From Mytilus trossulus (taxonomy: Eukaryota): a stretch of 64,000 nucleotides of DNA. Within the stretch, counting starts at the first letter, position 1. The number at the start of each line of letters is the position of its first letter. A program made the translations under genes and the position numbers. Location of the stretch: NCBI RefSeq assembly GCF_036588685.1, contig NC_086373.1, positions 42,346,001 to 42,410,000 on the forward strand, given 5' to 3'. Shown one piece after another: positions 10,261-64,000 of this stretch. Below the pieces are notes generated by a model. That model saw only the letters and a program-made list of their open reading frames with translations, did not search any database and was not told where the DNA came from.

Positions 10261-13200
10261 CTACTGATTCTGTGATTTGGCTTGTATTTTCATCATCAGC
10301 TTACTGAAAATAGAAATCATTCATTACTGTACATTTTGCAAAAAGGACAAACTGATATCATTATTATATTTATCTCTGTCCCTACATCTTTATCACCCTG
10401 CTCAGTTGCTCCATAATTCTCATCATCACGGCTTAATGATGAGAGCAGATATTATCAGCAACATCAAAATGTCGGAGAAGTTATCAGGGACATCCCAATG
10501 TGTAAGGAGATGTTATCAAGCATGCTTTCGTCAAGCATAAAACTGTTTTAAGGAGGGGAAATATGGATAAATGGATTTTGTTCATGTAGATATTGTCAAA
10601 TATCAGCCGCTCCACACAATGTAAAGCTTTTTAGCTCGTTCTCTGTGCACAGTTGACATTGTGGATGGTGGCTGATATTGTATGATGTCAATGTGTAGAA
10701 AACCTGTTAATCTTTAGTGATACATCTCCATTATTCACTGATGTTTGAATATTTATAATCACTTTTTTGTGATTTTTTTTTCCTTTGTTAAATGTTTATT
10801 AAGATCAATGATAAAGTATAGTAACGAATGGTAAAGAAAGGGTAAGACACTTTTATTGTAAATGTATGCATGCAAGTCCATTTAATTTTGTCAAACAGTG
10901 AACACAAGCATGTCTTTTGGTTCAATTTGAAAATGAAATTTTAGTTGTCTATGAAGTTGCACATTTAAGAATAGTTATAAAATATTAAAAAGAAAATGAA
11001 AGACAGAAAATTTAACACTCTCTTAAATCAATATGAATGTTCAAAAATGTATGTGTAGTCATGAGAAAACAAAACAAAATGCAAAATATGACTTTCCAAT
11101 TTTTATGAATGGAAAAACCCTATATGACTAGGGGAGATAACTCTACATCCAAAATAACTTACAAGTATCAGTAAATAATATTTACTTTAAATAACAAGTA
11201 TCACTCTTGACTATTTTCATGTATGACTTTGATTTTTGTTCTATATTGTGGGTAGATTTTGAAATATAACTACACTTTATAAGTATATGTTAACATTGTA
11301 TCTATAAATAATGTTGTACTAAATAATGCATATGAAGGCATATTATTTACTCACTTGCACAACATTTTAACATCCTTTAACTGATCATACAGATCCTGGT
11401 TAATTCTGTCTTGTTCTACCATCTGTCTTCTTAGATCTTCATCGTCCTTCTTATACTTCATTAAACTTTCTTTCTGTTCCTCAATCACCTGACTCTGTTC
11501 AGCTATAATTTGTTCTTTGGTCTGACCAACATTAACTTCCATATCAATTTTACTGTTTAGATTGTCTATTGTTTTACTATTTTCATTTATTGTTTTACAT
11601 TTGTCATGATTTTGCTCAATGAGATCATTAATTGTGGCACTCTGTTCATTAATTGTAGCACTCTGTTCATTAATTGTAGCACTCTGATCATTAATTGTAG
11701 CACTCTGATCATTAATTGTAGCACTCTGTTCATTAATTGTAGCACTCTGTTCATTAATTGTTATCACATGTTCTTCATTTTTCACATTTAGTTCTTCATT
11801 TTTCACATTTATTTCATTAATTGTAGCACTCTGTTCATTAATTGTATCACTTTGTTCATTAATTGTAGCACTCTGTGCCCTCACTTCATCTTTCTTTTCC
11901 TTAATCATCATCTTCTGCCTTTTAATAACTGATCCATACTCTCCTTTAGTATCCTCTAAATCCCTCAACTGACTACACTGATCACATATCTGTCTATCTT
12001 TCTGTGTTATTGTCCTCCTTAACTGGTACACATGTCTACCCTGTACTTCAGTTATATCCCTTATTCGATTATTATCTTCTGACTTTTGCTCTACTTCATT
12101 TTCTAGTTGGTGAATATTATCTCTCAAGAAATTATTATCTTGTTCTAAATCATGAACACGCCTCAACTGACCGTTGTAAATATGATTGACCAGTTCCAGT
12201 TGAGAATGTAATAATTGCTGCTCATCTCTTTCATGATAAATTTCATCATCTTTCTTCTCTATAGTTCTCATCATTTCAGCTGTAAAATAATTCAAGAGTA
12301 TATTTTTTTATGGATAAAAAATGTTACCAAATTTGAAAATGGGGGATAACTCTATCTTTTGTAAGAAACAAAAGTCTATTCATCAAAGTGAAGAAATTTG
12401 GAAAACTATGCAAATTCAACATAAATGTTCAATCTGATAAATGAGGTTTTATTCATTATCTTTTAAAAAATTATGGTCTTTGTGTGGAATTTAATGAAAA
12501 ACAAATACGCCATTGATTTAATATATACAGAACCTGTAACCACCAATTGAACAAACCCATATTAATCAGAAGTATTGACATCTACATGTAAAAATTAATA
12601 TGAATAATAACTAGTACAAATATGTTATGTTTGACTTATAAGGTATGATGAGATACATTTGTTATAAATTTTCTAACATCGGAAAAATGCCTTAAGCTTT
12701 CCAATTTCAATATCAATACAAATAGAAAGATTTATAAAACTCTGTATATAACAATGAAATCAATGCATTTGAAAAGAAAAATCTATTACAGCATAGTAAA
12801 ATAGTTTGAACCTTCAACCAATTATATAAATCACCATATTTAAGGAGCACAAAAAATAAAGTTTCCATGTTCATTTCAGAAATATTTATTAATATGAAAT
12901 GTTTGATTTCACTGATCTATCAGAGTTTGGTTGAACAATCCAAACATTTACTATACCTAATGACTGAGTCCTTCTTTTAGTTTTATTACCTCTCCAGTTG
13001 TTGATGAAAATTCTATACTGTAAACAGGTAGGGATTTCTCCTGAAAACAGAACAAATATGCAAAACTGAAAATTTAATGAGTTGAAGTTTGTTAAGAAAT
13101 GTAGTCATCCTAATTTTTCACCTCTATACTCATTTTGGGGAGTTTTGTCAAGTCTTTTTTTGTTATATAAAAGTCTCTCATAACTCTTTTGAGAGTGGCT

Positions 13201-34236: not shown

Positions 34237-37200
34237 CTAATGACTCTGTGATTTGGCTTGTATTTTCATCATCAGTTTACTGAAAAGAGAAATCATTCAT
34301 GAATGACATTTACAACAAGCACCAATAATGATATCAGTTATATTTCTCCTATATTCAATGATTTCTGAATATGTATAACCACTGAGTCTGACTGGTTTTC
34401 AGAGAAAAAAAACTCTCTATCCATCTACATAAATTGAAACATCTGCAAGTTCATAAAGTTGATTGAATTCATATAAAGTCAAAAGTTTAACTTAGTTATA
34501 CCAGTATTTTCTTTTTTATCCTTGAAGAGTGTTTAGACATTTACTTGCATGTGTGTACAATGTGTAATTAAATTTCTCAGATTTATTTTTAATGTTTTGA
34601 ATTATCTCCCCTTACCCTTCTACACAGATTTTTCTGTAATTCTCCTGGTATTAAATGTTTAATTTGTTGTAAGCAGGTATTTATTTAACACTCTAAAAGT
34701 GAGGGCAATGTATATACTAACATTGTATGCATAAAAGTTGTTAAAACAATCATGTAACTCATATGAAGGCATATTATTTACTTACTTGCACAATATTTTA
34801 ACATCCTTTAACTGATCATACAGATCCAGGTTTATTCTGTCTTGTTCTACCATCTGTCTTCTTAAATCTTCATCATCCTTCTTGGACTTCCTTAAACTTT
34901 CCTTCTGTTCCTCGATAATTGACTTCTGTTCTTCAAGTTTTGCATTCTGTTCTTCAATCAGCTGACTTTGTTCTGCTATAATCTGTTCTTTGGTCTGACC
35001 AACATGAACTTCCATATCAATTTTACTTTTCAGATTGTCTATTGTTTTGTCCTTTTGTTCACTAATTTCAATTATGGTTTTACATTTGTCATGGTTTTGC
35101 TCAATGAGATCATTAATTGTAGCACTTTGTTCATTAATTGTAGCACTTTGTTCGTCATTTCTCACATTCAGTTCTTCATTTCTCACATTCAGTTCTTCAT
35201 TTTTCACATTCAGTTTTTCATTTTTCACATTCAGTTCTTCATTTTTCACATTCAGTCCTTCATTTTTCACATTTATTTCATTAATTGTAGCACTTTGTTC
35301 TTCATTTTTCACATTTATTTCATTAATTGTAGCACGTTGTTCTTCATTTTTCACATTTATTTCATTAATTGTAGCACTCTGTTCATTAATTGTATCACTT
35401 TGTGCCTTCACTTCATCTTTTTTCTCTTTAATCATCATCTTCTGTCTCTTAATTACCGACCCATACTCTCCCTTTGTATCCTCTAAATCCCTCAACTGAC
35501 TACACTGATCACATATCTGTCTATCCTTCTGTGTTATTGTCCTCCTTAACTGGTACACATGTCTACCCTGTACTTCAGTTATGTCCCTTATTCGATTATT
35601 ATCTTCTGACTTTTGTTCCACTTCGATTTCTAGCTGGTGAATATTGTCTCTCAAGAAATTATTATCTTGTTCTAGATCCTGAACTCGCCTCAACTGACCG
35701 TTGTAAATATGTGTGACCAGATCCATTTGAGAATGTAATAATTGCTGTTCATCTCTTTCATGATAAATTTCATCATCTTTCTTCTCTATAGTTCTCATCA
35801 TTTCAGCTGTAATAAATTTTAAAAGTATGATTTCAAACTATAATATAAAAAAGAAGATGCGGTATGATTGCCAATGAGACAACTATCCACAAAAAAAACC
35901 AAAATGACACAAACATTAACAATTATAGGTCACCATACGGCCTTCAACAATGAGCAAAGCCCATACCGCATAGTCAGCTATAAAAGGCCCCAATAAGACA
36001 ATGTAAAACAATTCAAGCGAGAAAACTAACAGCCTTATTTATGTAAAAAAAATGAACGAAAAACGTTAGTTTTCTCGCTTGAATTGTTTTACATTGTCTT
36101 ATAGGGGCCTTTTATAGCTGACTATATGCGGTATGGGCTTTGCTCATTGTTGAAGGCCGTACGGTGACCTATAATTGTTAATGTTTGTGTCATTTTGGTC
36201 TTTTGTAGATAGTTGTCTCATTGGCAATCATACCACATCTTCTTTTTTATATTAACTCATCAGATAGACAAAAAATATATTATCTAAGACAGACATTTTT
36301 CATAAATCTTAAAATGGGGGATAACTCTATTTTCACATATAACACTTGTATACACATATACATTCATCAAATTGAGAAATTGGGAAAACTAAATGCAAAT
36401 GCAATATAACTGTTGGATCTGATTAGTTTGTCTTTTATCCATCATCTTTAAACAATTCTGGCCTTTGAGTGGAATCTTAAAGCAAATGTCTATTACTTTA
36501 ATATATAAATATTATTCATCTTGCTTATTCTTTAGTTTTCTATGATGTGTCATGTGTTCTAATGTTTGTCTGTTTGTCTTTTTTTTAATTTTTACCCATG
36601 GCGTTGTCAGTTTATTTTCGATTTATGAGTTTGACTGTCCCTCTGGTATCTTTTGTCCCCCTTTTATTGCTGTCGGTGTGAGCCAAAGCTCCATGTTGAA
36701 GACTTCTTTGACCTATAATGGTTCACTTTTACAAATTGTGACTTGGATGGATAGTTGTCTCACTAGCACTTATACCACATCTTCTTATATCTTTAACATG
36801 AAACCACCAATTGTACAAACCCACAAACTAGGAATATTGACATCTGCATGTAAAATTGATTTCTCAAATGTTTTGCAAAAAGCCCCAAATAATAACTAGT
36901 CAAAAGAAACTCTGCTTGACATATAAGGTATCATTTAATATATTTGATTTAAATTTTTTCAAACAGACTAAAATGCTTTCTTGTTTCAATATTATAAACA
37001 GTTTGAAAGATTTAAGAACTCTGTACATTACAATGAAATCAATGCATTTTCAAAATAAGAATAAACATTACAGCATAGTAAAATGATTTGAACTTTCAAC
37101 CAACTATATCATTTAACATTACGGTATATCTAAAGATTATTAACAACAAAGTTTCCTTTTTTATAACAAGAAGATAATTCATGACTATGAAATGTTTGAT

Positions 37201-42982: not shown

Positions 42983-43144
42983 TTTCCATATGCCCCAAAT
43001 ACCTGTGATGTTTAAGCATTCAAGTCATTGCAGTCATAGTGTACAGTAGCATTTTGCCAAATAAATAATATTATTAATCATATAATTTATTTTCAGATTT
43101 GTGGACCACAAGTATGGGGAACCCAGTACAAGCTGCTTAATAGC

Positions 43145-43620
43145 ACTACTATAGGGGGTTTTTGGACCCCCCAAAAAGAAATTAAGACCCCCAAGTTATA
43201 TAATCTTACATAATCTCAAATGACATAATATCATGATGTCATGACGTCATACATTTTATAGCACCCATACATTAATGCTGACTCATCCTAATCTTTATCA
43301 CCCATGTTCCTATCATGAATTCATGACGTCATATATTTTATAGCACCCATATATTAATGCTGACTCATCTTTTTATAGCACCCATTGATGTCATACATGA
43401 GTTAAAAAATTATGATTTGATCATCACCTTCTATTTCCCTATTATTTAAATTATTTGGTTCTGAGAAAATTTTCTTCCCCCTTAATTTTTTTAGATGACA
43501 ACTTATGACACCCACTTCTAACCTATCATGACGTCAAACCTATCATAACGTCATAATGCCATACATTTTTATAGCACCCATTCATTTTAATGCTGACTCA
43601 TCCTTTTATAACACCTATTG
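43145..43620. promoter_or_regulatory. Putative left terminal repeat region with clustered CRE and AP-1/ARE motifs
   Basis: TGACGTCA at 43242, 43324 and 43529; TGACTCA (within TGCTGACTCAT) at 43279, 43361 and 43594; TTTATAGCACCCAT repeated at least 4 times; GGGGGT..ACCCCC hairpin next to the ACTACT. Confidence 0.5.
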
Positions 43621-47900: not shown

Positions 47901-49765
47901 ATGAAGATGTTTTTAGCGGTGATTGTGTTTTCTTTGTATTTTTTTATGTACACAGATGCTTGTTTGTCATGTACAAAATTAGGAATCACCACAGAGTGTC
48001 TGTGCGAAGAAGGAATATGTTTACACATTGAAGATGACAAAATATACCTTGTCAAACTGACTGGATCGTGTAACTGTAATGTTACGTATATATCCAAGAA
48101 ACCCTCACTGGTCCTAAATAGGAACGATGCATCTTGTTCCTGGACATGTTCAAGTTTTCTTTGTTGTAAGTTATTATAGAAACTATACCAATATATTATG
48201 TAACACTCCTCTGATTATAATAATGTTTTTAAATCTTACATGTAATATAACATATGTTTATTTCAAATACAGTTACGTTAATTTTGTCGTCCATTATATA
48301 GTTTCTTGTCCCACTTATTGTCCTACATACAGAAAATGTAGATGCAAACTATTTCATGATTGTGGTTGATTCTGCATATACACATTCTAATAGCTTTAAT
48401 TACAGTTAATGATAAANNNNNNNNNNNNNNNNNNNNNNNNNNNNNNNNNNNNNNNNNNNNNNNNNNNNNNNNNNNNNNNNNNNNNNNNNNNNNNNNNNNN
48501 NNNNNNNNNNNNNNNNNNNNNNNNNNNNNNNNNNNNNNNNNNNNNNNNNNNNTCAAGGATATTGTGTTAATAGAAAAAAAGAAAGAAAAACTGTCAATAC
48601 ATCATAAAGTATTCCTTCAAAATACAACATTTACAAAAATATGAATGAAATCTTGTGTTTATTTTACAGTTCCTGATAATGCAACAGTTACAACCAAAAG
48701 TAATCTGTTACTTACCACACTGACAACAGGTGCAGTACCTCAAAAGACAGAAGCTACAACAGAAAAGACACCAATAACAACAGGAGTAACAACATCAACT
48801 ATCACCATAGGAGAAGCAACAGACACAACACAGACAATATCCATGACAGTAACAACAACAGATATAAATTATACCATTACAGGTACAAAAAAAAAATGTA
48901 TTACCTTTTTTGTACATTGAATTTTGTTGTGTAAAAAATAGATGTAAATCAAGATTTTTGTTTGATTTATGAAATACATTGTTGAAGTGAGCCAAGTTTG
49001 TAATGTCCATTGGCCAATATTTCAAAGATTTTAAGGACAGTGTCACATTATAAACTTTATCTTTCCTGTACTTTTTTTTTCAGAGTTCACCTCTGTAATT
49101 TGAAAAGTAACTTGATCTTAAAGGTGTTTCATTGAGTAAATATTTATATAAATGCCCCAAAAAAAAAAGTGTACAAAACAACACCAATATATATATAAAA
49201 AAAAGAAACATTAAATATAAATATCTATGAATATTTTGGATAACAGATATCCTTCATCAGTATGATAATGATGTAAATTGAATCATATCAATCTATTCTG
49301 ATTTAACTATAATAATTTTTTTTTTTTATAGGATTGTGGATTTGGGCTGTAGTTTTCAGTGTTTTCATTGTAGCTGCCTTAATGAAACTTATTCTTCAAC
49401 TGCGAAAACAACAGAACCAATACTTACCACTGCTTAGAAGCCTTAATTCTACCACAAATTCACATCTTTATAGCCAGACCATGCAGTCCTCATATTTAAG
49501 TATGGAATCATCCCAAACACCATCAGCACAGGGAAATATTAGCACGCCTGAACCATTCAATCGTAGCATCTACACGCCACCACAGTCATCAAGCCCAAAA
49601 CATGATACACTACCATCACCACCTACAGTATTTCATATCAATGACCAAGAGGAATCACCTGAACCTTCTGCATCACCAATTGAATTGATGTCAATATCTC
49701 CCATTGCCAGTAGAACAAGAACCAAAACCAAAAAAAAGATCATGTTTGAGGAAATTAATTTGTAA
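47901..49765 (+). CDS. Spliced type I membrane glycoprotein (~303 aa): signal peptide, 10-Cys ectodomain, Thr-rich mucin stalk, TM helix, Ser/Pro-rich tail
   Basis: Exons 47901-48165 (|gtaagt), 48670-48882 (tttacag|..|gtacaa) and 49332-49765 (tttatag|), all phase 1. Signal MKMFLAVIVFSLYFFMYTDA; TM LWIWAVVFSVFIVAALMKLIL. An N gap in intron 1 could hide further exons. Confidence 0.75.
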
Positions 49766-50183: not shown

Positions 50184-51496
50184 AAAAGCATGTCTGTCAT
50201 TATTATTAGATTAGATTTACAGTAGATGTAGCATTTAATCCCATTGTTGAATCTAGATTTTGTTGTAGTTGTTTTTTGTTTTGTTTTAATTTAGATATGA
50301 AGTTTAGAAAAAAAAATGTCAGTCATTTTTACTAGATTTAATTTACAGTAGATGTAGTTATTTTTTACACTGTTAAATCTAAATTTTTGTTTTTAATTTA
50401 GATATTCAATTAATAACTAGTCATTTTGTATTTGTGCCAATGAATTTTATTTACAAAACACTCAATATATGTGCCATTAATAGCATTATTACAATACATC
50501 ATAAATTAGGTAAACTTATAGAAATCTTAAAACATGTATACCCCCCTTTTTTTACTTTTTCATAAATATCACGTATCATGTTTATATGTGCCTATAAACT
50601 GTGATAAATTTATTTTAAATACAACACTAAATAATAGCTGTATGTTTGCTCATTATATGTGTCCATATTATGTAGTTCTACTTATTATTTGAAAAAAAAT
50701 AATACTTATGGTGCTTATTTGAACAATACTTTTTTTTTAATATTTGTTATAGATGCATTTCTTTTATAATGTAGATCATTGATAATTTTTTTATTGTCTA
50801 GTTTTATACTTATGATATTATTATTATTATGTTTTTATAAAATTTTATACACCATTATTATTAAACTACCTCATTTCATTGCTGATGGTTTTTTTTTTGG
50901 ACAAAAATCAAATGCAAAGTGTTGTTGCCACTTTTGTTATATAAAATTTATACACTGTTATTGTTTAAACTACTGCATTTTATACAGATTATGACATTAT
51001 GTACCTTATTTAATGCCTCTGATGTTTTACTACAAATTCCAGATGTGAAATGTTATTGAAAGAACTGAAATATATCCCATATCAAGAACACTTTGATATC
51101 ATTGTTTTTGTTTGAATGTTTTAATACACTATTAATGTTAAGTTGATTTAATATGATCAGTTTAAATACTTTTTTTTGTGTTTTTGTTGTTGTTGTATAT
51201 TTTGTTATAATTACTGTTCCAAATAATAAAAATGTTTATTAAATGTTTTTCTTTTCACTAAGCAGCTGTTGATGTCAGGGGAGGAGGGTCTTAATTTGTG
51301 GTAAAAAAGGTTTAGATTTTTTTTCGTATGAGATATGAAGGCTGTTGTTCACTTTTAGACCTTTTTTTTTTGAAAACATAGACAACAAAAAGACCACATT
51401 AATACACGTGATGTCATTACTTGTGTCCTTAATAATAACCTTAGTAACATTTTTTTTTATCATAATGAATTAGAGTTTTGTTCAGGACACATCAAA

Positions 51497-51988
51497 ATGG
51501 AAAAAATTGTTGAAGAGGAAACTGACAGTTTGGCCATTCCTATGGCATACTCACACTCAAGCATGAGATCTAGTATAAGTTCTTTGTTTAGGAACTATGA
51601 CATTCATTTCGACATTTTGAAAATGACAGGAATTTTGGTACTTTTATCTATAATGAGTGCTACTTTGGCAATGACTCATCATATTTATGCTTGTGACAAT
51701 TCTCAAAACAGAACTGATTGTATTTCATTATTAACTACCGACTCTTTGGACCAACAACAAAATTTTAGTTTGTGTACTTACATGAAACAATTTCAATTAC
51801 CAGGACATTACTATGTCACAATATGTACCTATCAAGCAGACATCAGAGTTGATGTCCGAATGTATCTTAATGATAGACCTACAATCAAAGGATTCTTTCT
51901 GAACACAAATCAATATGAATATTTAAAAAGGTTGATACCACATATTGACAAATCTATAAGCAACGCAAGAGCAAGAATAGGACAATGA
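51497..51988 (+). CDS. Transmembrane protein with C-terminal PC4-like ssDNA-binding domain
   Basis: Hydrophobic ILKMTGILVLLSIMSATLAM segment, then FQLPGHYYVTICTYQADIRVDVRMYLNDRPTIKGFFLNTNQYEYLKRLIPHID, matching the PC4 pattern YVTV..F.G...IDIR.Y....P.KKGI.L...QW..L. Confidence 0.75.
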   Translation: MEKIVEEETDSLAIPMAYSHSSMRSSISSLFRNYDIHFDILKMTGILVLLSIMSATLAMTHHIYACDNSQNRTDCISLLTTDSLDQQQNFSLCTYMKQFQLPGHYYVTICTYQADIRVDVRMYLNDRPTIKGFFLNTNQYEYLKRLIPHIDKSISNARARIGQ

Positions 51989-52120: not shown

Positions 52121-52783
52121 ATGAGTGACGAAAAGACGCTTCTCCCCTTTTCTTCCCCGACAACAATGTATATTGCCGGTCCGACGCAATCTGGAAAATC
52201 GATGTTCACCAAAAAACTCATCGAAAATGCTTCAAAAATGTTTACGGAAACACCAGATAGAATCTTGTATGCTTATTCCGAGTATCAGACATTGTTCGAC
52301 GACATGCAGAATATTCCAAATTTAACTTTTCAAGAAGGACTACCAGACAAACAGGAAATAGACGAGTTTACCCTAAATACGAAACATGCTTTAATTATAC
52401 TCGATGATTTAGTATCTAAAATTGTGCAATCCTCCGACCAATTGCATTTGTTTTCTGTAACCAGTCACCACAAAAAGGCATCAGTGGTGCTGATTTCTCA
52501 ATCTTTGTATCCGCCAGGGAAGTTTTCGAAAAGTATATCCCTGAACTGTGCTAATTTTGTCTTGTTTCGTAATCCACGAGATATGCGTCAATTGACAACA
52601 TTTGCCTCTCAGATACTTCCTGGCATGACAAAATATTTTAATGATTCTTATAGAAAGGCAACTCGGGAAAGATTTAACTACCTTTTTGTCGACCTGTCTA
52701 ATCAAAGAGAGGACAGAGAAAAGTTTATGTTACGCACGGGAATTTTCCCCAACGATACTTGTGTGGTTTACAGACCTGTATAA
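52121..52783 (+). CDS. Polinton DNA-packaging ATPase (FtsK/HerA, A32-like)
   Basis: Walker A GPTQSGKS, Walker B LIILDDL, SHH and VLISQ motifs. Start moved to ATG 52121 because the upstream extension is a TA microsatellite. Confidence 0.95.
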   Translation: MSDEKTLLPFSSPTTMYIAGPTQSGKSMFTKKLIENASKMFTETPDRILYAYSEYQTLFDDMQNIPNLTFQEGLPDKQEIDEFTLNTKHALIILDDLVSKIVQSSDQLHLFSVTSHHKKASVVLISQSLYPPGKFSKSISLNCANFVLFRNPRDMRQLTTFASQILPGMTKYFNDSYRKATRERFNYLFVDLSNQREDREKFMLRTGIFPNDTCVVYRPV

Positions 52784-53151: not shown

Positions 53152-53415
53152 ATGGCTAAAGAACTGATATTATTAGCAAAGAGAAAATACGAAGAATTAT
53201 TGGCATCGCAACCTTCAGCTAATGAAGACAATCAAGAAGACATGAAATATTCATCTGACCCTCCAGTAGATGTTTCAACACAAATTGGAAACGGCTTATT
53301 TGTTGAAAAAAATGATGATAATTATGCAGGCACGCCTGGAGTTCTTCAACATCCCTCACCTAAAATAAAAAATGCGAGACGGAGAAAGAAAAACGTAAAA
53401 TGGATACCGTATTGA
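53152..53415 (+). CDS. Small Polinton protein with QIGNG motif and basic C-terminus ending WIPY
   Basis: Intact ORF tightly packed after the previous one and followed by AATAAA at ~53457. Confidence 0.65.
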   Translation: MAKELILLAKRKYEELLASQPSANEDNQEDMKYSSDPPVDVSTQIGNGLFVEKNDDNYAGTPGVLQHPSPKIKNARRRKKNVKWIPY

Positions 53416-53488
53416 CTCTACTTTTTTTTTTTTTTTTATCTGTGTAAAATAGTTATAATAAAACAATAGAAATTGACAAGTTTTTTAT

Positions 53489-56400
53489 TTATTCGCTACA
53501 ATAACCAAACGGTAAAGTACTTAAGTCATTCAAGAGCCGTCTCTTGGTGTACACCATTTTGTATTCTTTTTGCTCTGGTCTGTTATACAATTTTCGTTTG
53601 CAACCAAGTCTAGAAATTTTTCGGGGATTAGTGGTTAGGATCGAATTTCTGTTTTTGTCAACTACAATATCTCTAATCGCCGAAAAATTTATAAGCTCTT
53701 CATTCGCTTTAGTTTGGAGAGAAAATCCTCTTACTTTACACTTTTCCTTTCCTGATACCATCCTGTAGGCGTAATTTTTAGGACCACCGGATACGAAATG
53801 AGTAATATACCCGTCTTCAGTCGAAATTTCGTTGGTCAGTTCACCCAAGTAGTTTCCTATCGGTAGTGTATTTGTGATTTGTTTGTTTCTATCTACAAAT
53901 ATGACGGAATCAGTGTCAACGTAAAGAGTGTTCTCGTCCGTCTTCTCGAGTACTTTATAGAGACTAATTCTAGCCCAACAAGTGGTAAAAGAGGCAATAA
54001 ACACGTTGGTTTTGTAGTCTATAGGTATGAAAGACGGGTAATCGAAATGTTCCGTCTGTACAGTATTTTTATTGATGATGTGAAAGTCCCTTACGTCCTT
54101 TTTTGGATCTGAAAGTAACTGAAAGAATTTGTCGGCTTCATTTTCGGTAAAAAATGTGGTCTGTTTCATGTTTAACCGTTGTCCAAACTTTCCCCAAAAA
54201 CTATTCAAACAAATTTTGGCGAGACTACGAAGACCTGGATTTTTTCTTATTTGATCGTAATCCAAGAGAATTCCTTCCTTTTGGGCATAGTCTGCTATGT
54301 AATCCATCTTTTGTTGTTCCGTTTCACACTCTGAGGGAAATCCGGAAGCTTCCTGTTTTAATTTCAAAAACAAATTAACATACCCGTCAAAAAGACCACC
54401 TTTCCCTGTTTGTCTGTCGTAGATTTTGGTTTCTGCGAAATCATATATTTCATAAATTTTGAGTATTCGATACCCTTTTGAACGAGCCAATTCTAACTCC
54501 GGTGTACACCAAGTTCCTATCATAGATCTGTTTGAATCTGTACATATACAACTACGCTGATTTTCTGTCTCTGCACATTGTTTACATAAAGGAAACTTTA
54601 ATTTTCCGTTCGATAAGTACGGTAAAACAGGATGGTACAGACGTCTCGGTGGAAGAACTTTCACCTTTGCGATACCGAAATAATGTGAGAGATCGGAGAA
54701 ATTGGACGTGACAATGGTTGGATGTCCGATAGGATATTTTGCATATTTATTAACGCTAGGATACAAACTGTAAGAAAAAGAAAAAAGGAGATAAGGTTAC
54801 AGACATATAGGTTATAATTTTTTTTTTTTTTTTTTTTTATTTACCAACTTAAAAACTCTTTTAAAGATAAAGGGGTGTGTGTGAATATGAGTTAATAGTT
54901 TACCACCAGTCGAGTATAGTCAACACGTTAACATGAAATATCAATAATGCTATTGTCATTTTATAAAAAAAAAAAAATTTACTGTTTGATTTGAAAACTA
55001 TACATTATTCAAAAATACTAAGGATTTTTCTACCTTCAGACACAGATTACTGTAGCCACACAACCTTTTTTGGAATTTTTTTTGGTCCACAATGGTTTCA
55101 TCAACTTTGCCTTTTTTTTTTTTGGTCTTTTCAATTATTTCCGCTTCTAGCGTCACTTATGGAGTCTTATATTATATATTATATATATAGACGAAACGCG
55201 GGTAAAAAAAATTTATAAGTCTCTGATTAGGTATTTTTTTACCTCGTAAAATCGTAATATTCAATCGTCTCCCCAGGTTCCGTGGTTTCATGGTACAATC
55301 TTATGGCATTTGTTCTTCCCCCGAAAAAACTGTCTCTCGGGTCAAGGCGATCAGTTACCTCGATAGAAGACACATAAGCTCTAATTTCCTCATCTTGCTG
55401 TAGTTGTTCCATAAACTCATGTTCCCAGACACTGACGTATTCGTACCCTCGACGTTTTAATTCCGTTTCTTTGTTTTTGGTAAGGTAGTATAGTTCGTTG
55501 AGAGAGTGTTTGGTGAGAGGATCGGTGGTACGTGTTCTTTCGTGTGGAAAACAGGACGGACAACCATGGAAACGACATCCTTTGGAAAAAAATAAAATAA
55601 AGAAAAAAATTAAAAAAGAAAAAAATTAAAAAAGAAAAAAAAAATAAGACCGCGCCGCGGACTCGAAGACCGCGCCGCGGACTCGAAGACCGCGGACTCG
55701 AAGACCGCGCCGCGGACTCGAAGANNNNNNNNNNNNNNNNNNNNNNNNNNNNNNNNNNNNNNNNNNNNNNNNNNNNNNNNNNNNNNNNNNNNNNNNNNNN
55801 NNNNNNNNNNNNNNNNNNNNNNNNNNNNNNNNNNNNNNNNNNNNNNNNNNNNNNNNTATGCTATCCTTCTTGTACCTCGTTCTTCATATCCGTCCAATCT
55901 GTAATTCGTACCCTGTACTCTATGTTCTCCTCTTCCATTTAGAGCATGTTGAATATGAATCGTCGGTTGACCATCTTTTCGTCTGGCGGATTCCATGGTC
56001 CATTCTAACCATTGAATTGATATCTTGCTAAAATTGTCTCTCGATACGTAACCTTGCGAAGGGACCAACGCAAGAGGGGTTTTGAGGAAGACAGTCGTCG
56101 GTTTACCATATCTGTCAGAATCTATCGTATCTTTAGTCACCCAATCACCTTCAGGTATTTTGAAATGTACAACGTTGTTTTCATCAAATTTCGTTTGACA
56201 CCTTACAGTCTCATTGTTTCGTCTGTCTATAAGGCGAGTTTCATATTCCTCGTCCAAAAACAATTCCCGGTAAATTGCTTGACACGCAGAGGCTATCGTA
56301 ACGTAATCAAAGGGGTCTATACCTTCCCTTTGAGTTACCATTTCACCATTTGCGTTTAATTTTCTCTCCGACGTGACCTCCATCATTAACTGACGAAATT

Positions 56401-59111
56401 TCATGCAACCACGTCGTAAAATATCTACGTCGGAGACACAGTAGTCGTACATTTCCGATTGAAAGTCAAAAATGGCATTTTGCTTAGACGCATACCATTC
56501 CCGGAATTTCTGGACATCCTTCCCAGACATGTTTTCGATTCCGTAATAACTTTCATCGGGATACGGACCTCGATACGATTGATTTTCCTGTGTGTTAAAC
56601 AAATGCGGAAAATAACCTTTCGTCACCTCTCTCAAACCAAAACATTCTGGTATTTTGGAGAGTTTCATTTGAATGAAATTAAGCGAATCTAGGAAGGTCA
56701 GATCCAGTCCTTTAGAAACGTGCATGTAGTTGATTTTGGAACCGTCAAAAAATAATTTTGTTCGGTTTGACGCTGTGATTGTCCAGGAGACAGTTAAGTA
56801 TGGGATAGTTATCGAATCCCTTGGCATTATGTGCCATCAACACGGTATTTTTATAACAGGGAGTCATGATATGCGAACAAAACTGTTGTGGTACGTCGTT
56901 CCCTCTAAATACCCGTTGTCTAAACCCACAACGGTTCTCGCATGGTAACGGTATTAATTTCTTTCGGAGGACGCTACATGTGTCGCAACGGCTACCACAA
57001 GAGTTACACTTCGAGTCTTTGGTCAATTCTTCGTTCTGGCATTTGACACATGAAGACTGCAGCACGGCAAAGTTTACCTTGTGTTCCGTTAGTCCACACC
57101 ACGATTGATCGCATTTCACGCAAAGACGACATTTATCACACCTTGTCTCCAGATTACATTTCACTTCAACACCTCTTGGTACATGTCCATCCGAACACGA
57201 TGCTTTGGGTTCACCCGCCTCAGAACGTGCACATATACCATTTCTCATAGGAAATTGTCTTCCACAAGGTACTCTTGGTGCGTAGCCATCTGTGCAAACC
57301 ATCAATTCGTTTTGCGTAGTTTCAAAATCGAAAAAAAAAAATTTTCTAGGTTCGTCTGTAGTCGACTCTCTATTTCTTTGCCGGCGTTGAAAACACAAAT
57401 GGTTTCCGAATTGGTATTCGAAACAATTTTTGCATTTCCATTCACCGCACTTGTGATCCTCCGGACTTCTTTTTTGTCTGCAGAGGACTTTTTTGCAGGT
57501 TCTACACTGATAAAATCTCTCGCACATGGACTTCTCTGTGTCCCTTCCTCTGGTGTCTTTCCTCTCGCGATGGCTAATGTAACAATCTTGATTGCGACAT
57601 GTTCGATTGCAATACACGCACTGCTTTTGGTCTGCACTTGACTTGCAATTTTGGCTACCACATACGTCGCACGTATTTATGCAAGAGTGTCTCCCTTTGT
57701 TTTTGTAAGGTATTAAACAAGAAGCACAGAAGTACCCGAATCCAAAAAATCCATTAATGCTACCTATTCCGTCGAAATGCCCTCCTCCGTCTGTGGTGGA
57801 ATTTTCGGTAAGGTACAGGTAAATATTTCTATGGTCTGGGTTATTTGCGACTCGACAGAACTTGTTACCAAGTTTGGCAGACAAAACCAAAATATTGACC
57901 TCAAGCAACTCTTCTAGAGCGTCGATGTCTCTGATCGTTAATGGTTTATTGATTGAAAGGTTGGCCTCTTTACACAAGGTCAATGCCATTGTTTTTCCGT
58001 AGGACTTCTTCCCATCACTTACATGCTTGTAGTAGCTCTTCGTTGTCATCCCATGTTTTATGACCTTCATGAACGTGTTCATATAGGGGGGATCGTTCTT
58101 GGTTACGTTTTTCCATTTGTCTCCGTGTACCATTTCGCACAGTTTTAGAAAACACCTTCCCACGGCAGTGGCCAAACACAAATGGTCGTCGTTGGATATC
58201 CGAAGCATGGATCTTTTCAGAGCTATAGAGCTATTCGGACCATTTAATCTGATGATCGGTAGTGTACGCCCGCTACCGCTTGGTATGGCTATGCGTCCAA
58301 CAACAACGTTCATCTGCGTATCCAAAGGTAAATTTTCTTCGCTATTTAAGACATTTTCCACAGCTGTCATAACTCTGTTAGAGTCGATGTTGGACCATTT
58401 GTCCAATGGTACAACGATGGCATTGTTGAGATCAGGGTGAGTTACGATGACTCTTCCGAGGTCGCCCTCGTTGTTACCTCGAGCTCTGTTAAGAACGTCG
58501 TCAAACATTTCGCGTACTTCTTTCAAAATATCTCTCATCTTTTTCCCTTTCCATTGATCGTTGAATTTGATTTTGTACGTCGTTTCTCTCGCCAAATTTT
58601 TAGAAAATATTTTTTCCCCTGTTTTTTCAAAGATGTACGGTAACGATTCATCCGTTGCCCCATACCCCTTTTGACTGGACTCACCCAAATGGTTGGTCTG
58701 CTTTGTTTGCACCTCTGGTGTGCGAGAAGCTTTCAGTATAGAGATGTTGGGGTTCTGCCTACTTGTTTGTGGAGGATAACTGACTATTTGATTATTTACC
58801 GATTCGTGTACTGTCTGATGTTCCCGTAATTTGGATGGAAGATCGATTTTTATGCCGCAATGTTTACATGTTTGTAGATATGTGAGTCTGTCTATCACTA
58901 ATTGGTTCGTCAAAAGTAGATTATCTATAGCCCAAACGATTAAACTGTTTGCATCCGTAAAGGTCTGTAAAATATTTGTTATGAAATTTGTTATTCGCTG
59001 TTGTATGACAGGATGGCTCGTTAGATAGTTTTCTTCTGCCCATTGGCGGAGTTCCGGTAAGGAAGCAATGGTACTTACGAAATCCGACAAACTTGGATAT
59101 TTCTGGCTCAT
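53489..59111 (-). CDS. polB: Protein-primed DNA polymerase B (pPolB) with terminal-protein/OTU-like N-terminus; two introns and one frameshift
   Basis: Exo I FFDFET, Exo II AHNAKGFD, Exo III YCVSDV, DSFFGGRT, motif A YYDFTS|LYP, motif B KICLNSFWGKF, motif C YVDTDS, GPKNY and KVRGF. Coding segments: 59111 to the N gap (~55856) with an extra A at 56747-56752, then 55579-55243 and 54767-53489. Confidence 0.95.
54768..55242 (-). other. Spliceosomal intron (475 bp, phase 2) in pPolB motif A
   Basis: GAT TTT ACG AG|gtaaaa...ttttcttacag|T TTG TAT CCT restores DFTSLYP. Confidence 0.9.
55580..55855 (-). other. Second pPolB intron (phase 1); donor hidden in the N gap
   Basis: Long polypyrimidine tract ending ttttccaaag|GA TGT CGT TTC CAT GGT TGT. 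This restores RIAY(EFx)G|CRFHGCPSC of the endonuclease-like insert. Confidence 0.75.
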
Positions 59112-59361
59112 TTCCCTTATTTTTTTCTGTAACAAACAAATAAACTAAAAAGATCATGTTTAATATCAATATTTCAAAAAAAAAATCAATGCATATAATT
59201 TATAGACCCTATTTTTTTCTGCTGCGTCATGATGACAAACCATTTAAGAATTTAAGCACCCAGATCGATTTGCCATGCCTTTTAGCAGAGGTATTTCATC
59301 CCCTACTCGTTCGCGATTGGTCATGTTGAAAAAGTAAAATAACGTATAAATATTTTGTTTC

Positions 59362-60450
59362 ATGACAGTATTTTCATACTCAGGGTATAACATGATGGGA
59401 TTCGATAGAGAACGTACCGAATACAGATGCGGTTGCTATTCCGAATACTATTCGCACGATTCATTTTTTTACAACGATTCCAGAGGTGGTTTTGTCAATG
59501 TTTGCGGAAAACACGACCATGAAGATACAGCACGAAGTGATCATTTTGAACATATCAAAGCCGAACGTGTAATAGGAAAAGCTGAAGACGTTTTAACGAC
59601 ACAAATGAAACCTGTCCCTATTATTAGGTATCTAAAGGAACAGAGAATGATTTCCGATGATGATGCAAGCAGGCTGCTAAAATATGATTCAAAGTCTATA
59701 ATGGTAAAGGAGCTGTTACAGATTTTCATTCAGCGTATATCATTAAATCAATTGAGGTTGACATTAATAAAAACTGAACAGACACAGTTACTTAGATATT
59801 TGACAGATTCGGAGCAAAATCAAGAAGACGATACTGAAAAAAGCTACGAAGGAAGATGTATGTTACATCTCGAGGGAGACTGCTATGTCGTTGCCAACGA
59901 CTATAAAGGCTGTATTTACATTCACATTCGCAAATACATGACAAAAGGATCTAAGAAATTTCCAACTAAACAAGGTGCGAGTCTTACGCTCTCCAGATGG
60001 CTGATGTTAAAATCTAAGAAAGATGAGATCGACCTAAAGTTTAAAAACGGACTTGATGGCAAACTTGAAGAAGAAGATTTGATTCATCTAGGAGGTGGTG
60101 TATACATTACAATAAATCCAGAATTCCCTACTGTAGATATTAGACATTTTTGGAGGCCTCAAGATGCACCTAAAGCAGTCGCTACAAAACGCGGTGTAGC
60201 CTTGAATAAGTTTAAATGGGAACGTCTCTGTTATGTAATGGATTTGATGATAGATTTCGTACCAGAATTGAATAGTGGTGTCATCTGTGAGTTTACCCAC
60301 GACAACGAAATGGGTATTTTGGCCTGTAAAGAATGTAATCCCTTCCCGGAAACTGATGAAGACGATCCCGTCCCAGAGGATGAAAACGACACTTTACCAC
60401 TACCACCACTTCTAGACAAACAAGAGGGGATTCCTGAAATTGCTAATTGA
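59362..60450 (+). CDS. CARD-like death-fold domain + two tandem PC4-like domains + C-terminal Zn-binding motif
   Basis: aa ~66-148 show a six-helix CARD pattern (EDVLTTQMKPVPIIRYLKEQRMISDDDASRL..VKELLQIF..LRLTLIKTEQTQLLRYL). PC4 repeats lie at aa ~166-225 and ~240-296, followed by CEFTH..CKEC. Confidence 0.75.
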   Translation: MTVFSYSGYNMMGFDRERTEYRCGCYSEYYSHDSFFYNDSRGGFVNVCGKHDHEDTARSDHFEHIKAERVIGKAEDVLTTQMKPVPIIRYLKEQRMISDDDASRLLKYDSKSIMVKELLQIFIQRISLNQLRLTLIKTEQTQLLRYLTDSEQNQEDDTEKSYEGRCMLHLEGDCYVVANDYKGCIYIHIRKYMTKGSKKFPTKQGASLTLSRWLMLKSKKDEIDLKFKNGLDGKLEEEDLIHLGGGVYITINPEFPTVDIRHFWRPQDAPKAVATKRGVALNKFKWERLCYVMDLMIDFVPELNSGVICEFTHDNEMGILACKECNPFPETDEDDPVPEDENDTLPLPPLLDKQEGIPEIAN

Positions 60451-60635: not shown

Positions 60636-60926
60636 GATTTAAAAAAAAAAGATCAAATCATAAAACGAGTATTAACATGAAAGGTTTAAAAACATATTTA
60701 ATACGTGATTCATTGGTATAACATTAATTACGTTGGTGACTCTTGAATGGGCTCATGAAAATGAGTAAAAAAAACCAAAAAAAAAAAAAACGATTTAAAA
60801 AAAAATCAAATCATAAAACGAGTATTAACATGAAAGGTATAAAAACATATTTAATACGTGATTCATTGGTATAACATCCATTACGTTGGTGACTCTTGAA
60901 TGGGCTAATGAAAATGAGTAAAAAAC
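60636..60926 (+). repeat. 153-bp tandem duplication of the integrase upstream region and first codons
   Basis: ATCAAATCATAAAACGAG...ATGAAAATGAGTAAAAAA occurs at 60652 and again at 60805. Confidence 0.9.
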
Positions 60927-62083
60927 AAAAAGAAGATTACATCAGAAAAATATGGACTGACCCCAGTCATCCTGCAGCATTTGCCGGTCCTGATAAACTT
61001 TATAAAATAATTCAAAAAGATGGGAAGTTTGACATAGGTCGCGGCAGCGTTAAAAGAATTTTAGCCAAAATAGATACTTATAGTGTTCAGAGACCTACTA
61101 GAAAAAAGTTTAAAAGAAATAGGGTAATCGTGTCTGGTATCGATGCGCAATGGGACGGTGACCTCGCATCCATGGAAAATGTATCGAAATACAATAAATA
61201 CAAATTTTTACTGATACTGATAGATATATTTTCCAGGTATCTAATAGTCAGACCGTTAAAGGATAAAAAAAGCACTACCGTTGCAACGGCATTAAAATCT
61301 ATTTTTAATCAAAGTAACAGAAGACCATCAACTATTCGTTTCGATCAGGGAGGAGAGTTCAAAGCGAGTGTAAAACAATATTTGAAGAAAACAGGGATTC
61401 ATGTTTTTTACACCCATAACTCTCAGATAAAGAGTAACTATGCGGAAAGAGTTATCAGAACGTTAAAAAATCGTATATATTCCTATTTCATGGAAAACCA
61501 AACGTACAAATATATAGATGTACTTCAGGATCTGGTAACTAGTTATAATAATACTCCACATCAGTCGTTAGGAGGTGCAACACCAACTTCGGTGACGAAA
61601 AAAAATGAGGATGAAATTCGGTACGTCCAATACCTAGCAAGGCAAAAAAATAAAAAACCAAAGAAAACGACAAAGCAAAAAAACCAAAAACCAATAAAAA
61701 TGACAAAATCCAAGAAGAAGAAACGACCTTTCTATAAATTTAATTTGGGTGATCACGTCAGAGTTTCTCAACTAAAAAGAGTATTCGAGAAAGGATATCA
61801 GGAAAATTGGACATTGGAATATTTTACGATTTCAAAAAGATTTAAAAGAGATAATCTTGACATTTATGTTTTATTTGATGCCTTAGGTGATAGAATTGAA
61901 GGAACATTTTACCGAAATGAACTTCAGAAAATAGAAAAATCTGATACTGAACTATATAAAATTGAAAAAATTACCAAGAAAAGAAAGATAGCGGGGAAGG
62001 ACCAAGTTTTAGTTAAATGGTTGGGATGGCCTTCTAAATTTAACTCGTGGGTATCCAAGGATGAAGTAAAAGAATTCAAATAG
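60908..62083 (+). CDS. int: Retroviral-type (c-int) DDE integrase with C-terminal chromodomain
   Basis: WDGDL..IDIFSR, RFDQGGEF and AERVIRTLK; SH3-like FNLGDHVRVS; chromodomain YKIEKI...VLVKWLGWPSKFNSWV. Confidence 0.95.
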   Translation: MKMSKKQKEDYIRKIWTDPSHPAAFAGPDKLYKIIQKDGKFDIGRGSVKRILAKIDTYSVQRPTRKKFKRNRVIVSGIDAQWDGDLASMENVSKYNKYKFLLILIDIFSRYLIVRPLKDKKSTTVATALKSIFNQSNRRPSTIRFDQGGEFKASVKQYLKKTGIHVFYTHNSQIKSNYAERVIRTLKNRIYSYFMENQTYKYIDVLQDLVTSYNNTPHQSLGGATPTSVTKKNEDEIRYVQYLARQKNKKPKKTTKQKNQKPIKMTKSKKKKRPFYKFNLGDHVRVSQLKRVFEKGYQENWTLEYFTISKRFKRDNLDIYVLFDALGDRIEGTFYRNELQKIEKSDTELYKIEKITKKRKIAGKDQVLVKWLGWPSKFNSWVSKDEVKEFK

Positions 62084-62999: not shown

Positions 63000-64000
63000 A
63001 TGTCTTTTTTGAGCGGGGATAATAAGGATATTGGACAACCTCAGGAATTATCTATTTTTGCATCTCCTCCTAATCAAGTAGCTGTTGAAAAAGTAACATA
63101 CACGGAAGAACGACCTATTTCGAATTTAATCAATGATTCTACCCCCATAGAAATAGTTGTTTCTGGAGCTGGAAATGATTATATAGATTTAAGAAAAAGT
63201 CGTCTATATGTCAAAATGCAAATTTTAAAATCAGATGGAACTAAGCTAGTAGATGATGAAAAAACAGGTATCATTAATTTACCGTTGCAGAGTATGTTTT
63301 CACACATTGATATTTACATGAACAATAAGCTTATATCAATAAATTCCAACAATTATCCTTGGAAAGCCTATTTCAAGACGATACTTTCTTCTGGAAACGA
63401 TGAACAGAATTCACAACTTCAAAGCCAACTCTTCATGAAAGACGATGACCCTATGGACTCTGTGAGTCTCAATTCCGGTATAGTTAACAGAATGCAATTT
63501 ACACAAGATTCAAGAGTATTCGAGTTAGAAGGAAATTTATTGGAAGATGCACTTCAACTGGATAAATATCTTATAAGTGGTGTCGATATCTACATGAAAC
63601 TTTTCAGATCAAATGTTCCCTTTCTACTCATGTCTGAAGAAATTTCGCCAAGTTACAAAGTCAAAATTTTGGATGTGTTTTATAGAACCGCGAGAGTCAA
63701 ATTGGACCCGGGAGTTATAATGAACCATCGAAACGAAATACAAAAATCACCAGCCCAATACATGATCACTAGAAGTCACGTTATACAAAATGTAATTCCT
63801 AAGGGGTCAACTGATTTTTTTTGGGATGCAATGTTTCCGAAAGCTCTTCCATCAAAAGTAGTAATTGGGCTAGTTTCCCAAAAAGCTGCAAATGGAGATT
63901 ATACTGCTAATCCGTTTAATTTTCAACATTTCAACATGACAAACGTTACTATGAAAGTGAATGGCGTGGAGGTTTATGGGTCTCCATTGAGTTTGGATTT
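63000..64000 (+). CDS. Major capsid protein (double jelly-roll), truncated by the window edge
   Basis: Open from ATG 63000: ELSIFASPPNQ..RPIS..PIEIVVSG..YIDLRKSRLYVK..NLPLQSMFS..NNYPWKAY..NPFNFQHF, the Polinton MCP pattern. It is missing from the ORF track because it has no stop in the window. Confidence 0.92.
   Translation, partial: MSFLSGDNKDIGQPQELSIFASPPNQVAVEKVTYTEERPISNLINDSTPIEIVVSGAGNDYIDLRKSRLYVKMQILKSDGTKLVDDEKTGIINLPLQSMFSHIDIYMNNKLISINSNNYPWKAYFKTILSSGNDEQNSQLQSQLFMKDDDPMDSVSLNSGIVNRMQFTQDSRVFELEGNLLEDALQLDKYLISGVDIYMKLFRSNVPFLLMSEEISPSYKVKILDVFYRTARVKLDPGVIMNHRNEIQKSPAQYMITRSHVIQNVIPKGSTDFFWDAMFPKALPSKVVIGLVSQKAANGDYTANPFNFQHFNMTNVTMKVNGVEVYGSPLSLD

Follow-up and report, generated by a model that had tools for sequence, protein, structure and literature searches.

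The gene for the protein-primed family B DNA polymerase (pPolB) of a Polinton/Maverick element in the mussel Mytilus trossulus is split by two introns of host type. Such introns are common to separate insertions of the element and to distantly related families, and both are removed in one contig that is likely RNA. We consider it highly probable that they represent an old gain in a lineage infecting bivalves and that they are spliced routinely rather than acting as a switch, the term routine reflecting consensus splice sites and a lack of contrary data.

The window (the whole 64,000-nucleotide stretch analyzed) carries a ~22.2-kb element that starts at position 43145, extends to the last base of the window at 64000 and ends 1,373 bases beyond it (L031:1373). 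Its terminal inverted repeats (TIRs) are 265 bp long and mutually 99% alike, the left one lying at 43145–43409 (+), and a 6-bp TSD is present at 43139–43144 and again beyond the right end. The Polinton/Maverick gene set comprises, in addition to pPolB, a packaging ATPase (52121–52783, +; Pfam Pox_A32, E 6e-4, under the curated cut-off), a retroviral-type integrase with a chromodomain (60911–62083, +; Pfam rve, E 6e-11, and Chromo, E 3e-7), both single-exon, a likely capsid gene, and, downstream of the latter, an adenovirus-type protease (Peptidase_C5, E 4e-7). The capsid assignment concerns a conserved ORF of fitting size and place (63000–64000, +, continuing into L031) which, from its size and position, we take to encode the major capsid protein; the conserved ORFs fitting double jelly-roll major and single jelly-roll minor capsid proteins by these same attributes matched no Pfam family. 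No core gene other than pPolB contains an intron. The element also carries two PC4-like single-strand-binding genes (51374–51988 and 59350–60450; Pfam PC4, E 0.05 and 6e-12, respectively) and a putative spliced cargo gene of three exons (47901–49765, +). The latter, which matched no Pfam family, would encode a type I membrane protein with a predicted signal peptide, Cys-rich part, Thr-rich stalk, membrane span and Ser/Pro-rich tail; its exon 2/3 junction is in phase 1 with good sites, its first donor is weak, and exons 2 and 3 are also present in a sister copy on contig C5. Outside the element, two long open frames on the minus strand (11351–12307, 318 aa, and 34782–35837, 351 aa) gave no passing Pfam match.

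The pPolB gene reads on the minus strand. Exon 1 (55846–59111), of which we infer the start Met from the sequence and the 3′ end from sister copies, encodes the N-terminal region, the exonuclease and the first half of a Vsr-like domain (Pfam PF03175, E 1.9e-16). It is followed by intron A (55580–55845), which is rich in simple repeats and interrupts the Gly of YEFHG|C in phase 1, its acceptor at 55580 consisting of a pyrimidine tract followed by AAG. The donor falls within a stretch of Ns in the window and was read from sister copies L002 and L003 as G|GTGAGT, thereby placing the end of exon 1 at ~55846 and setting the length of intron A at ~266 bp, compared to 196 and 251 bp in the sister copies. 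Exon 2 (55243–55579, 337 bp) encodes CRFHGC...DSFFGGRT...YYDFT and two bases of a Ser codon, and thus the second half of the Vsr-like domain, the YxGG-type motif GGRT and the start of motif A. Intron C (54768–55242, 475 bp) splits this motif A Ser in phase 2 (DFTS|LYP); it begins with GTAAAA, ends with a pyrimidine tract and CAG, has a GC content of 0.27 versus 0.37–0.44 in the exons, and shows no strict YTRAY in its last 70 nt. Exon 3 (53489–54767; PF03175, E 6.9e-22) harbors LYP, motif B (KICLNSFWGK), motif C (YVDTDS) and the stop codon. The original prediction of a 475-bp GT-AG intron in the Ser of DFTS|LYP, a second intron with its acceptor at 55580 in YEFxG|C, and a 337-bp exon carrying DSFFGGRT is thus borne out, that of the exon by translation. 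Exon 1 of the window copy is frameshifted near 56745, a lesion absent from both sister copies and not mentioned in the original prediction.

A profile of 98 homologues aligned DFTSLYP with motif A, and GGRT with the YxGG motif, of the phi29 polymerase. A structure model of P0002, an uninterrupted natural homologue (pLDDT 92), superimposed on the phi29 polymerase with a Z score of 29.1 (rmsd 3.2, 429 aligned residues), while its residues 200–337 matched the E. coli Vsr endonuclease (1cw0; Z 9.6, rmsd 4.8, 120 aligned) and also resembled I-Bth0305I (Z 7.2). By these alignments and this model, the enzyme is a protein-primed family B DNA polymerase with an inserted Vsr-like nuclease domain, as in other VSR-bearing pPolBs, such that intron A splits the Vsr-like domain and intron C motif A. 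A phmmer search of the PDB with P0001, a M. galloprovincialis gene model, yielded no match, and an Atlas search with the Vsr-like region returned unnamed clusters only.

If left unspliced, the reading frames stop at 55239–55241 and 55610–55612 with motif A still incomplete; full-length polymerase, as anticipated by the original prediction, therefore needs host splicing. A nuclear element devoid of its own RNA polymerase already relies on host transcription, and splicing thus adds no new kind of dependence. Four of the 24 listed read runs were compared with positions 53300–55581 in search of the splice joints. In run X1, a probable RNA sample (status guessed; 77 million letters), contig 4 (736 bp, depth 4.1) skips exactly 54768–55242, i.e. 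475 bases CT..AC, and past exon 2 enters exon 1 sequence at 55580, with no other letters on the aligned pieces, indicating that both introns had been removed. Depth was zero in the inner intron bins of this one low-depth run. The joint was seen in this one of the four runs: X2 yielded partial pieces of relatives, X21 (raw RNA, 6% read) no reads, and X17, which is DNA-like, retained intron C and also contained a relative in which a shorter insert occupies that position. Thus, precise intron removal restoring the homologous frame was observed, thinly, in one contig at a depth of ~4; the joined form may otherwise reflect an intron-free DNA copy in the X1 animal. The GT...AG ends, donor consensus and pyrimidine tracts point to introns of the major (U2) spliceosome, and self-splicing of the group I or II type is disfavored by interiors that are short, unrelated, and either AT-rich or filled with repeats.

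The original prediction went further in proposing that splicing could work as a latency/activation switch. Regulated splicing of this kind, or retention of intron A yielding an excess of a short N-terminal product (~1,190 aa) lacking the polymerase domain, would fit the fact that retention of either intron truncates the frame ahead of a complete motif A (compare P0247) and that pPolB alone is split among the core genes. The available text of a punuivirus report likewise describes enrichment of intron-bearing genes in the latent programme, but presents these genes as constitutively expressed, with no splicing switch (10.64898/2026.10.09.758095). The donors GTGAGT, GTAAGT and GTAA match the U2 consensus and, with their long pyrimidine tracts, look constitutive; X1 gave no retained-intron signal, with the caveat that it is a single run of low depth; intron interiors are unconserved between families; and the largest pPolB family of this genome does without introns in the copies examined (see below). 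The switch is therefore an unlikely reading, unsupported by the present data. Under the preferred reading of routine splicing, nuclear transcription of the element by host Pol II would be followed by splicing through the major spliceosome, and the introns would be copied along as the element replicates as DNA.

Two sister copies of the element, on contigs C5 and C7, are >99% identical to the window in their exons and carry both introns. The three 99%-identical copies on three contigs are each flanked by a different 6-bp TSD with both introns present in each, implying that the introns predate integration. The exons of the copies differ by 0 and 2 mismatches over 1,688 bases, compared to 6 and 8 mismatches along with 3–4 gaps in intron C. 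The C5 sister is rearranged, with inverted pieces of the polymerase gene adjoining a second intron-bearing family (L048–L050, L085; C5:31.11–31.15 Mb), and in the C7 sister (L032) the left 6 kb have given way to an inverted ~1.5-kb segment of the right end. Intron C contains a decayed piece (54897–55170, −) of a ~355-bp host repeat, to which it is ~69% identical; 39 further matches to this repeat were found among the 42 listed (40 of 253 candidates scored), and elsewhere the repeat occurs in short tandem arrays. The remnant is present in all three copies and, given its divergence, was acquired long before they spread. Matches to the whole of intron C were confined to the three sister copies, all others being to the inner repeat at ~69% identity (again with 40 of 253 candidates scored), on the basis of which an introner was rejected.

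Host insertions acquired after integration by a dead element, with GT-AG ends arising by chance, could account for the host repeat remnant and would sit well with the frameshift of the window copy. The same inserts nevertheless recur despite different TSDs, and at the same codons in divergent families; they are spliced exactly in X1, and their ends bear no duplication, whereas a decay insertion in L046 shows a direct duplication at its ends and no GT-AG. This explanation was accordingly rejected, with a residual probability that we regard as negligible. The original prediction was to be given up if sister copies lacked the inserts and no spliced reads existed; the sisters carry them and a spliced contig exists. 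A second explanation, that the polymerase gene was domesticated as a host gene and then gained introns, has a precedent in the same bivalve subclass, where it has been proposed for TLEWI elements in the portion of that report at hand (10.1101/656579). Here, the elements harboring the gene are multi-copy, have TIRs, distinct TSDs and a full gene set, and lie at non-orthologous places. Contradicted by this diversity of insertion sites, domestication was rejected as very improbable.

Introns or intron ends at these codons were found at 13 of the 28 distinct places examined in the genome; 14 places had no intron at the sites covered and one was undecided. Families only 54–85% identical share intron positions at the same codons, with unrelated intron sequences that show no alignment beyond 22 bp from one family to another. 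In L004/L007, L005 and L024/L027, site C is occupied at the same base by introns of 88–143 bp, and site A, where preserved, in phase 1 by introns of 149–252 bp. L008 carries an intron at site A in phase 2 and none at site C (L008:1155–1500). L012, L013 and L015 have their site A intron in phase 0, after the Gly, plus a third, intron B, of ~141 bp and phase 0, just before the YxGG-type motif GGRT; intron B is also implied by the unnamed protein P0170. A single Gly codon is thus associated with junctions in phase 1 (L003:1235–1500), 2 (L008) and 0, after it (L012:1258–1500), in three families. GT...AG ends were present in 16 of the 17 introns delimited by protein homology, the exception being the decayed copy L027, and the 17 measured lengths range from 88 to 493 bp; intron C of L004 and intron B of L015 were missed by the intron pattern and were read from alignments. 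In the site-C clade (window 43145, L036:3046), the termini of the elements have the sequence ACTACT..., compared to AGTAGAG... in the site-B family (L039:3944, L042:4033) and AGTAG in the C4/C8 family.

Between the window and L037, pN/pS amounted to 0.20/0.79 over the 110 codons of exon 2 and to 0.15/0.88 over the 421 codons of exon 3. With pS saturated and pN low on both sides of intron C, the exons were evidently under purifying selection during the time that they carried the introns. Three further diverged intron-bearing elements possess TIRs and TSDs of their own, and exon 1 (~930 codons of P0001) aligned free of long gaps in L033 and L043. Several copies carry stops or frameshifts, which were counted against present activity. 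The commonest pPolB type in the genome is that of a high-copy, near-identical Polinton family with open frames of 640–1253 aa (L028–L030 and 20 more); this largest family, with 23 of the 50 matches, is intron-free in the three copies examined. Site C requires an AGY serine codon, and TCN is used in nine of the ten intron-free genome copies compared.

Among named proteins, the nearest to those of the element come from Mytilus species (74–99%). The joins found here are present in public gene models. P0001, with 99% identity to L037, has its exons joined at exactly these codons, as have M. edulis gene models; automated annotation of Mytilus genomes had thus already joined these exons, unlabelled. 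The ORF-called version of the P0001/L037 family in public contigs is broken into pieces of 1187, 81 and 441 aa, with ends YEFLGE and DFTR and a start at ...FFSLYPS. Six unnamed clusters at 68–80% identity have their start at LYP or immediately upstream, two of them with a read-through of the pyrimidine tract, and P0265 reads through an in-frame intron at site C. Searches of metagenome and viral contigs gave 77 and 6 pattern matches, respectively, none of which was confirmed as a relative. Intron DNA outside this genome is known through run X17 and protein ends only.

In a tree built from exon 3 only, with 45 hand-picked rows of 107, every intron-bearing row fell within one 31-row clade (99/98); mussels, oysters and a pearl oyster are the sources of the named members of the wider clade. 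In line with the original prediction, shared positions therefore mark a lineage, with the same codons used across its families. Site C was confined to a 13-row subclade (100/100), within which it is absent from P0127 and P0146. Two further proteins, P0002 and P0003, run uninterrupted through sites A and C and are nested in the intron clade (97/95 branch), indicating that loss or repeated gain has occurred. The notion that a DNA-replicating element has no reverse transcription step to purge introns, also part of the original prediction, is reasonable, but these two contiguous members lie inside the clade. An AU test did not reject a topology forcing P0002, P0003 and P0182 outside the clade (p-AU 0.287), a result that does not demonstrate a clade with the three outside. 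Of the ORF-called proteins, 2 of 17 within the clade, namely P0002 and P0003, spanned site A, as opposed to 120 of 143 elsewhere in the tree; these counts exclude 45 NCBI-type models (195 of 240 proteins left before position filters), and no p-values were used since kin are not independent but share states and two length-limited searches bias the starts.

Repeated, independent gains at motif codons, whether at proto-splice hot spots or as relics of homing-type introns, with site A invaded up to three times, provide the most substantial alternative account of the origin of the introns, if still a doubtful one. The three phases at site A are compatible with independent gains no less than with a single gain followed by sliding; the contiguous P0002 and P0003 lie between phase families in the tree; and all three intron sites fall on residues that are 98–100% conserved (80 of 120 long homologues) within 113 of ~1,470 codons, the chance of such conserved sites being 0.001 by residue and 0.012–0.026 by window in a post hoc calculation. 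As described in the accessible part of PMC12768974, mirusvirus spliceosomal introns carry homing endonucleases, VSR-like ones being among the types tested, which may be set beside the resemblance of the Vsr-like domain to I-Bth0305I. The introns measured here, on the other hand, are too short for a nuclease gene, and an intact shintron was rejected on account of their size and of the absence of a homing endonuclease inside the 17 measured. Moreover, a single-clade tree was not rejected, site C behaves as one clean gain, and conserved sites would be enriched anyway because introns there resist imprecise loss. Repeated gain concerns the origin of the introns alone and is compatible with their being genuinely spliced. 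For the sites overall, one gain followed by sliding and loss, or several gains, are both possible.

The simplest reading of the position of the introns within motifs is one of retention. An intron in an invariant codon would tolerate exact loss only, and an element replicating as DNA would rarely pass through cDNA; the intron would thus persist while its interior is free to drift, as suggested by lengths of 88 to 493 bp, simple repeats and a host repeat remnant. Proto-splice context may have contributed to the choice of sites. The intron in the Gly of the Vsr-like domain probably came first, followed by that in motif A in one subclade and that at the GGRT site in another. A more elaborate scenario, in which an old but still mobile bivalve polintovirus lineage had its introns aimed at invariant codons by a homing-like process, the three phases reflecting repeated invasion or sliding, and in which splicing sets the level of full polymerase, seems improbable to us.

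With respect to known systems, TIRs, a 6-bp TSD, pPolB, integrase, ATPase, protease and a likely capsid are common to this element and to animal Polintons/Mavericks, as described in passages on vertebrate (PMC8097293) and nematode (10.1101/2022.07.12.499685) elements, and the Vsr-like domain in pPolB recalls mollusc pPolB2 (excerpts of PMC10748475). Unlike animal Mavericks as portrayed in those passages, the element has spliceosomal introns in a core gene. Intact vertebrate Mavericks are presented in the relevant section of PMC8097293 as devoid of introns, Genewise introns being taken as decay; intronless core genes, a descriptive trait there rather than a formal criterion, do not extend to pPolB here. 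The available text of Widen et al. (10.1101/2022.07.12.499685) depicts Maverick core genes as intronless and cargo as intron-bearing, and the putative cargo gene at 47901–49765 resembles the intron-bearing cargo that nematode Mavericks carry close to their left TIR. A long-standing precedent for a split viral polymerase comes from chloroviruses: according to the portion of PMC7019647 consulted, PBCV-1 a185r has a spliceosomal intron of 86–101 nt, conserved in sequence, at one shared position in a family B polymerase and present or absent by lineage. That virus is a giant lytic algal virus with one intron, whereas here an integrating animal element has two introns in a gene, with three sites in the clade and unrelated sequences. 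Spliceosomal introns also occur inside full-length polinton-like elements of dinoflagellates, where, on the partial text of PMC12166617, they are young copies of host intron-generating transposons, in contrast to the old, position-conserved introns reported here. As far as the accessible part of PMC12768974 goes, mirusvirus introns, including shintrons, share with ours GT-AG ends and a concentration in conserved genes of nuclear DNA viruses, but mirusviruses belong to a different realm and have many introns, some with homing endonucleases, none of which were seen in the introns here. TLEWI Tc1-like elements of pteriomorph bivalves are DNA elements with spliceosomal introns as well; those elements lack TIRs and look domesticated in the passages concerned (10.1101/656579), while the intron-bearing Polintons described here kept moving. 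Group I introns have been reported in PLVs (PMC12220804, in part). The available portions of PMC8502044, PMC10294476 and 10.64898/2026.07.28.741278 contain no passage relevant to pPolB introns, and the literature searched holds no description of spliceosomal introns in an animal Polinton pPolB, although supplements or Repbase may already annotate some.

These findings bear on how Polintons are catalogued. In the passages concerned, one survey scores an element as intact only with intronless ORFs (PMC8097293), and another applies prokaryotic gene callers and assumes that endogenous viruses are without introns (PMC10120064); the intron-bearing clade, which accounts for 13 of the 28 places examined in this genome, would therefore be scored as decayed or be missed. 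With three phases at one codon and families for which a tree can be built, the clade offers a small system in which to study how introns are gained, lost or shifted by sliding, and reads across the exon junctions would report Polinton transcription in an animal without being mimicked by DNA. An inherited pair of spliced introns in a core Polinton gene, for which there are precedents in other DNA viruses, contradicts the working assumption of the field: Polintons are not always intron-free.
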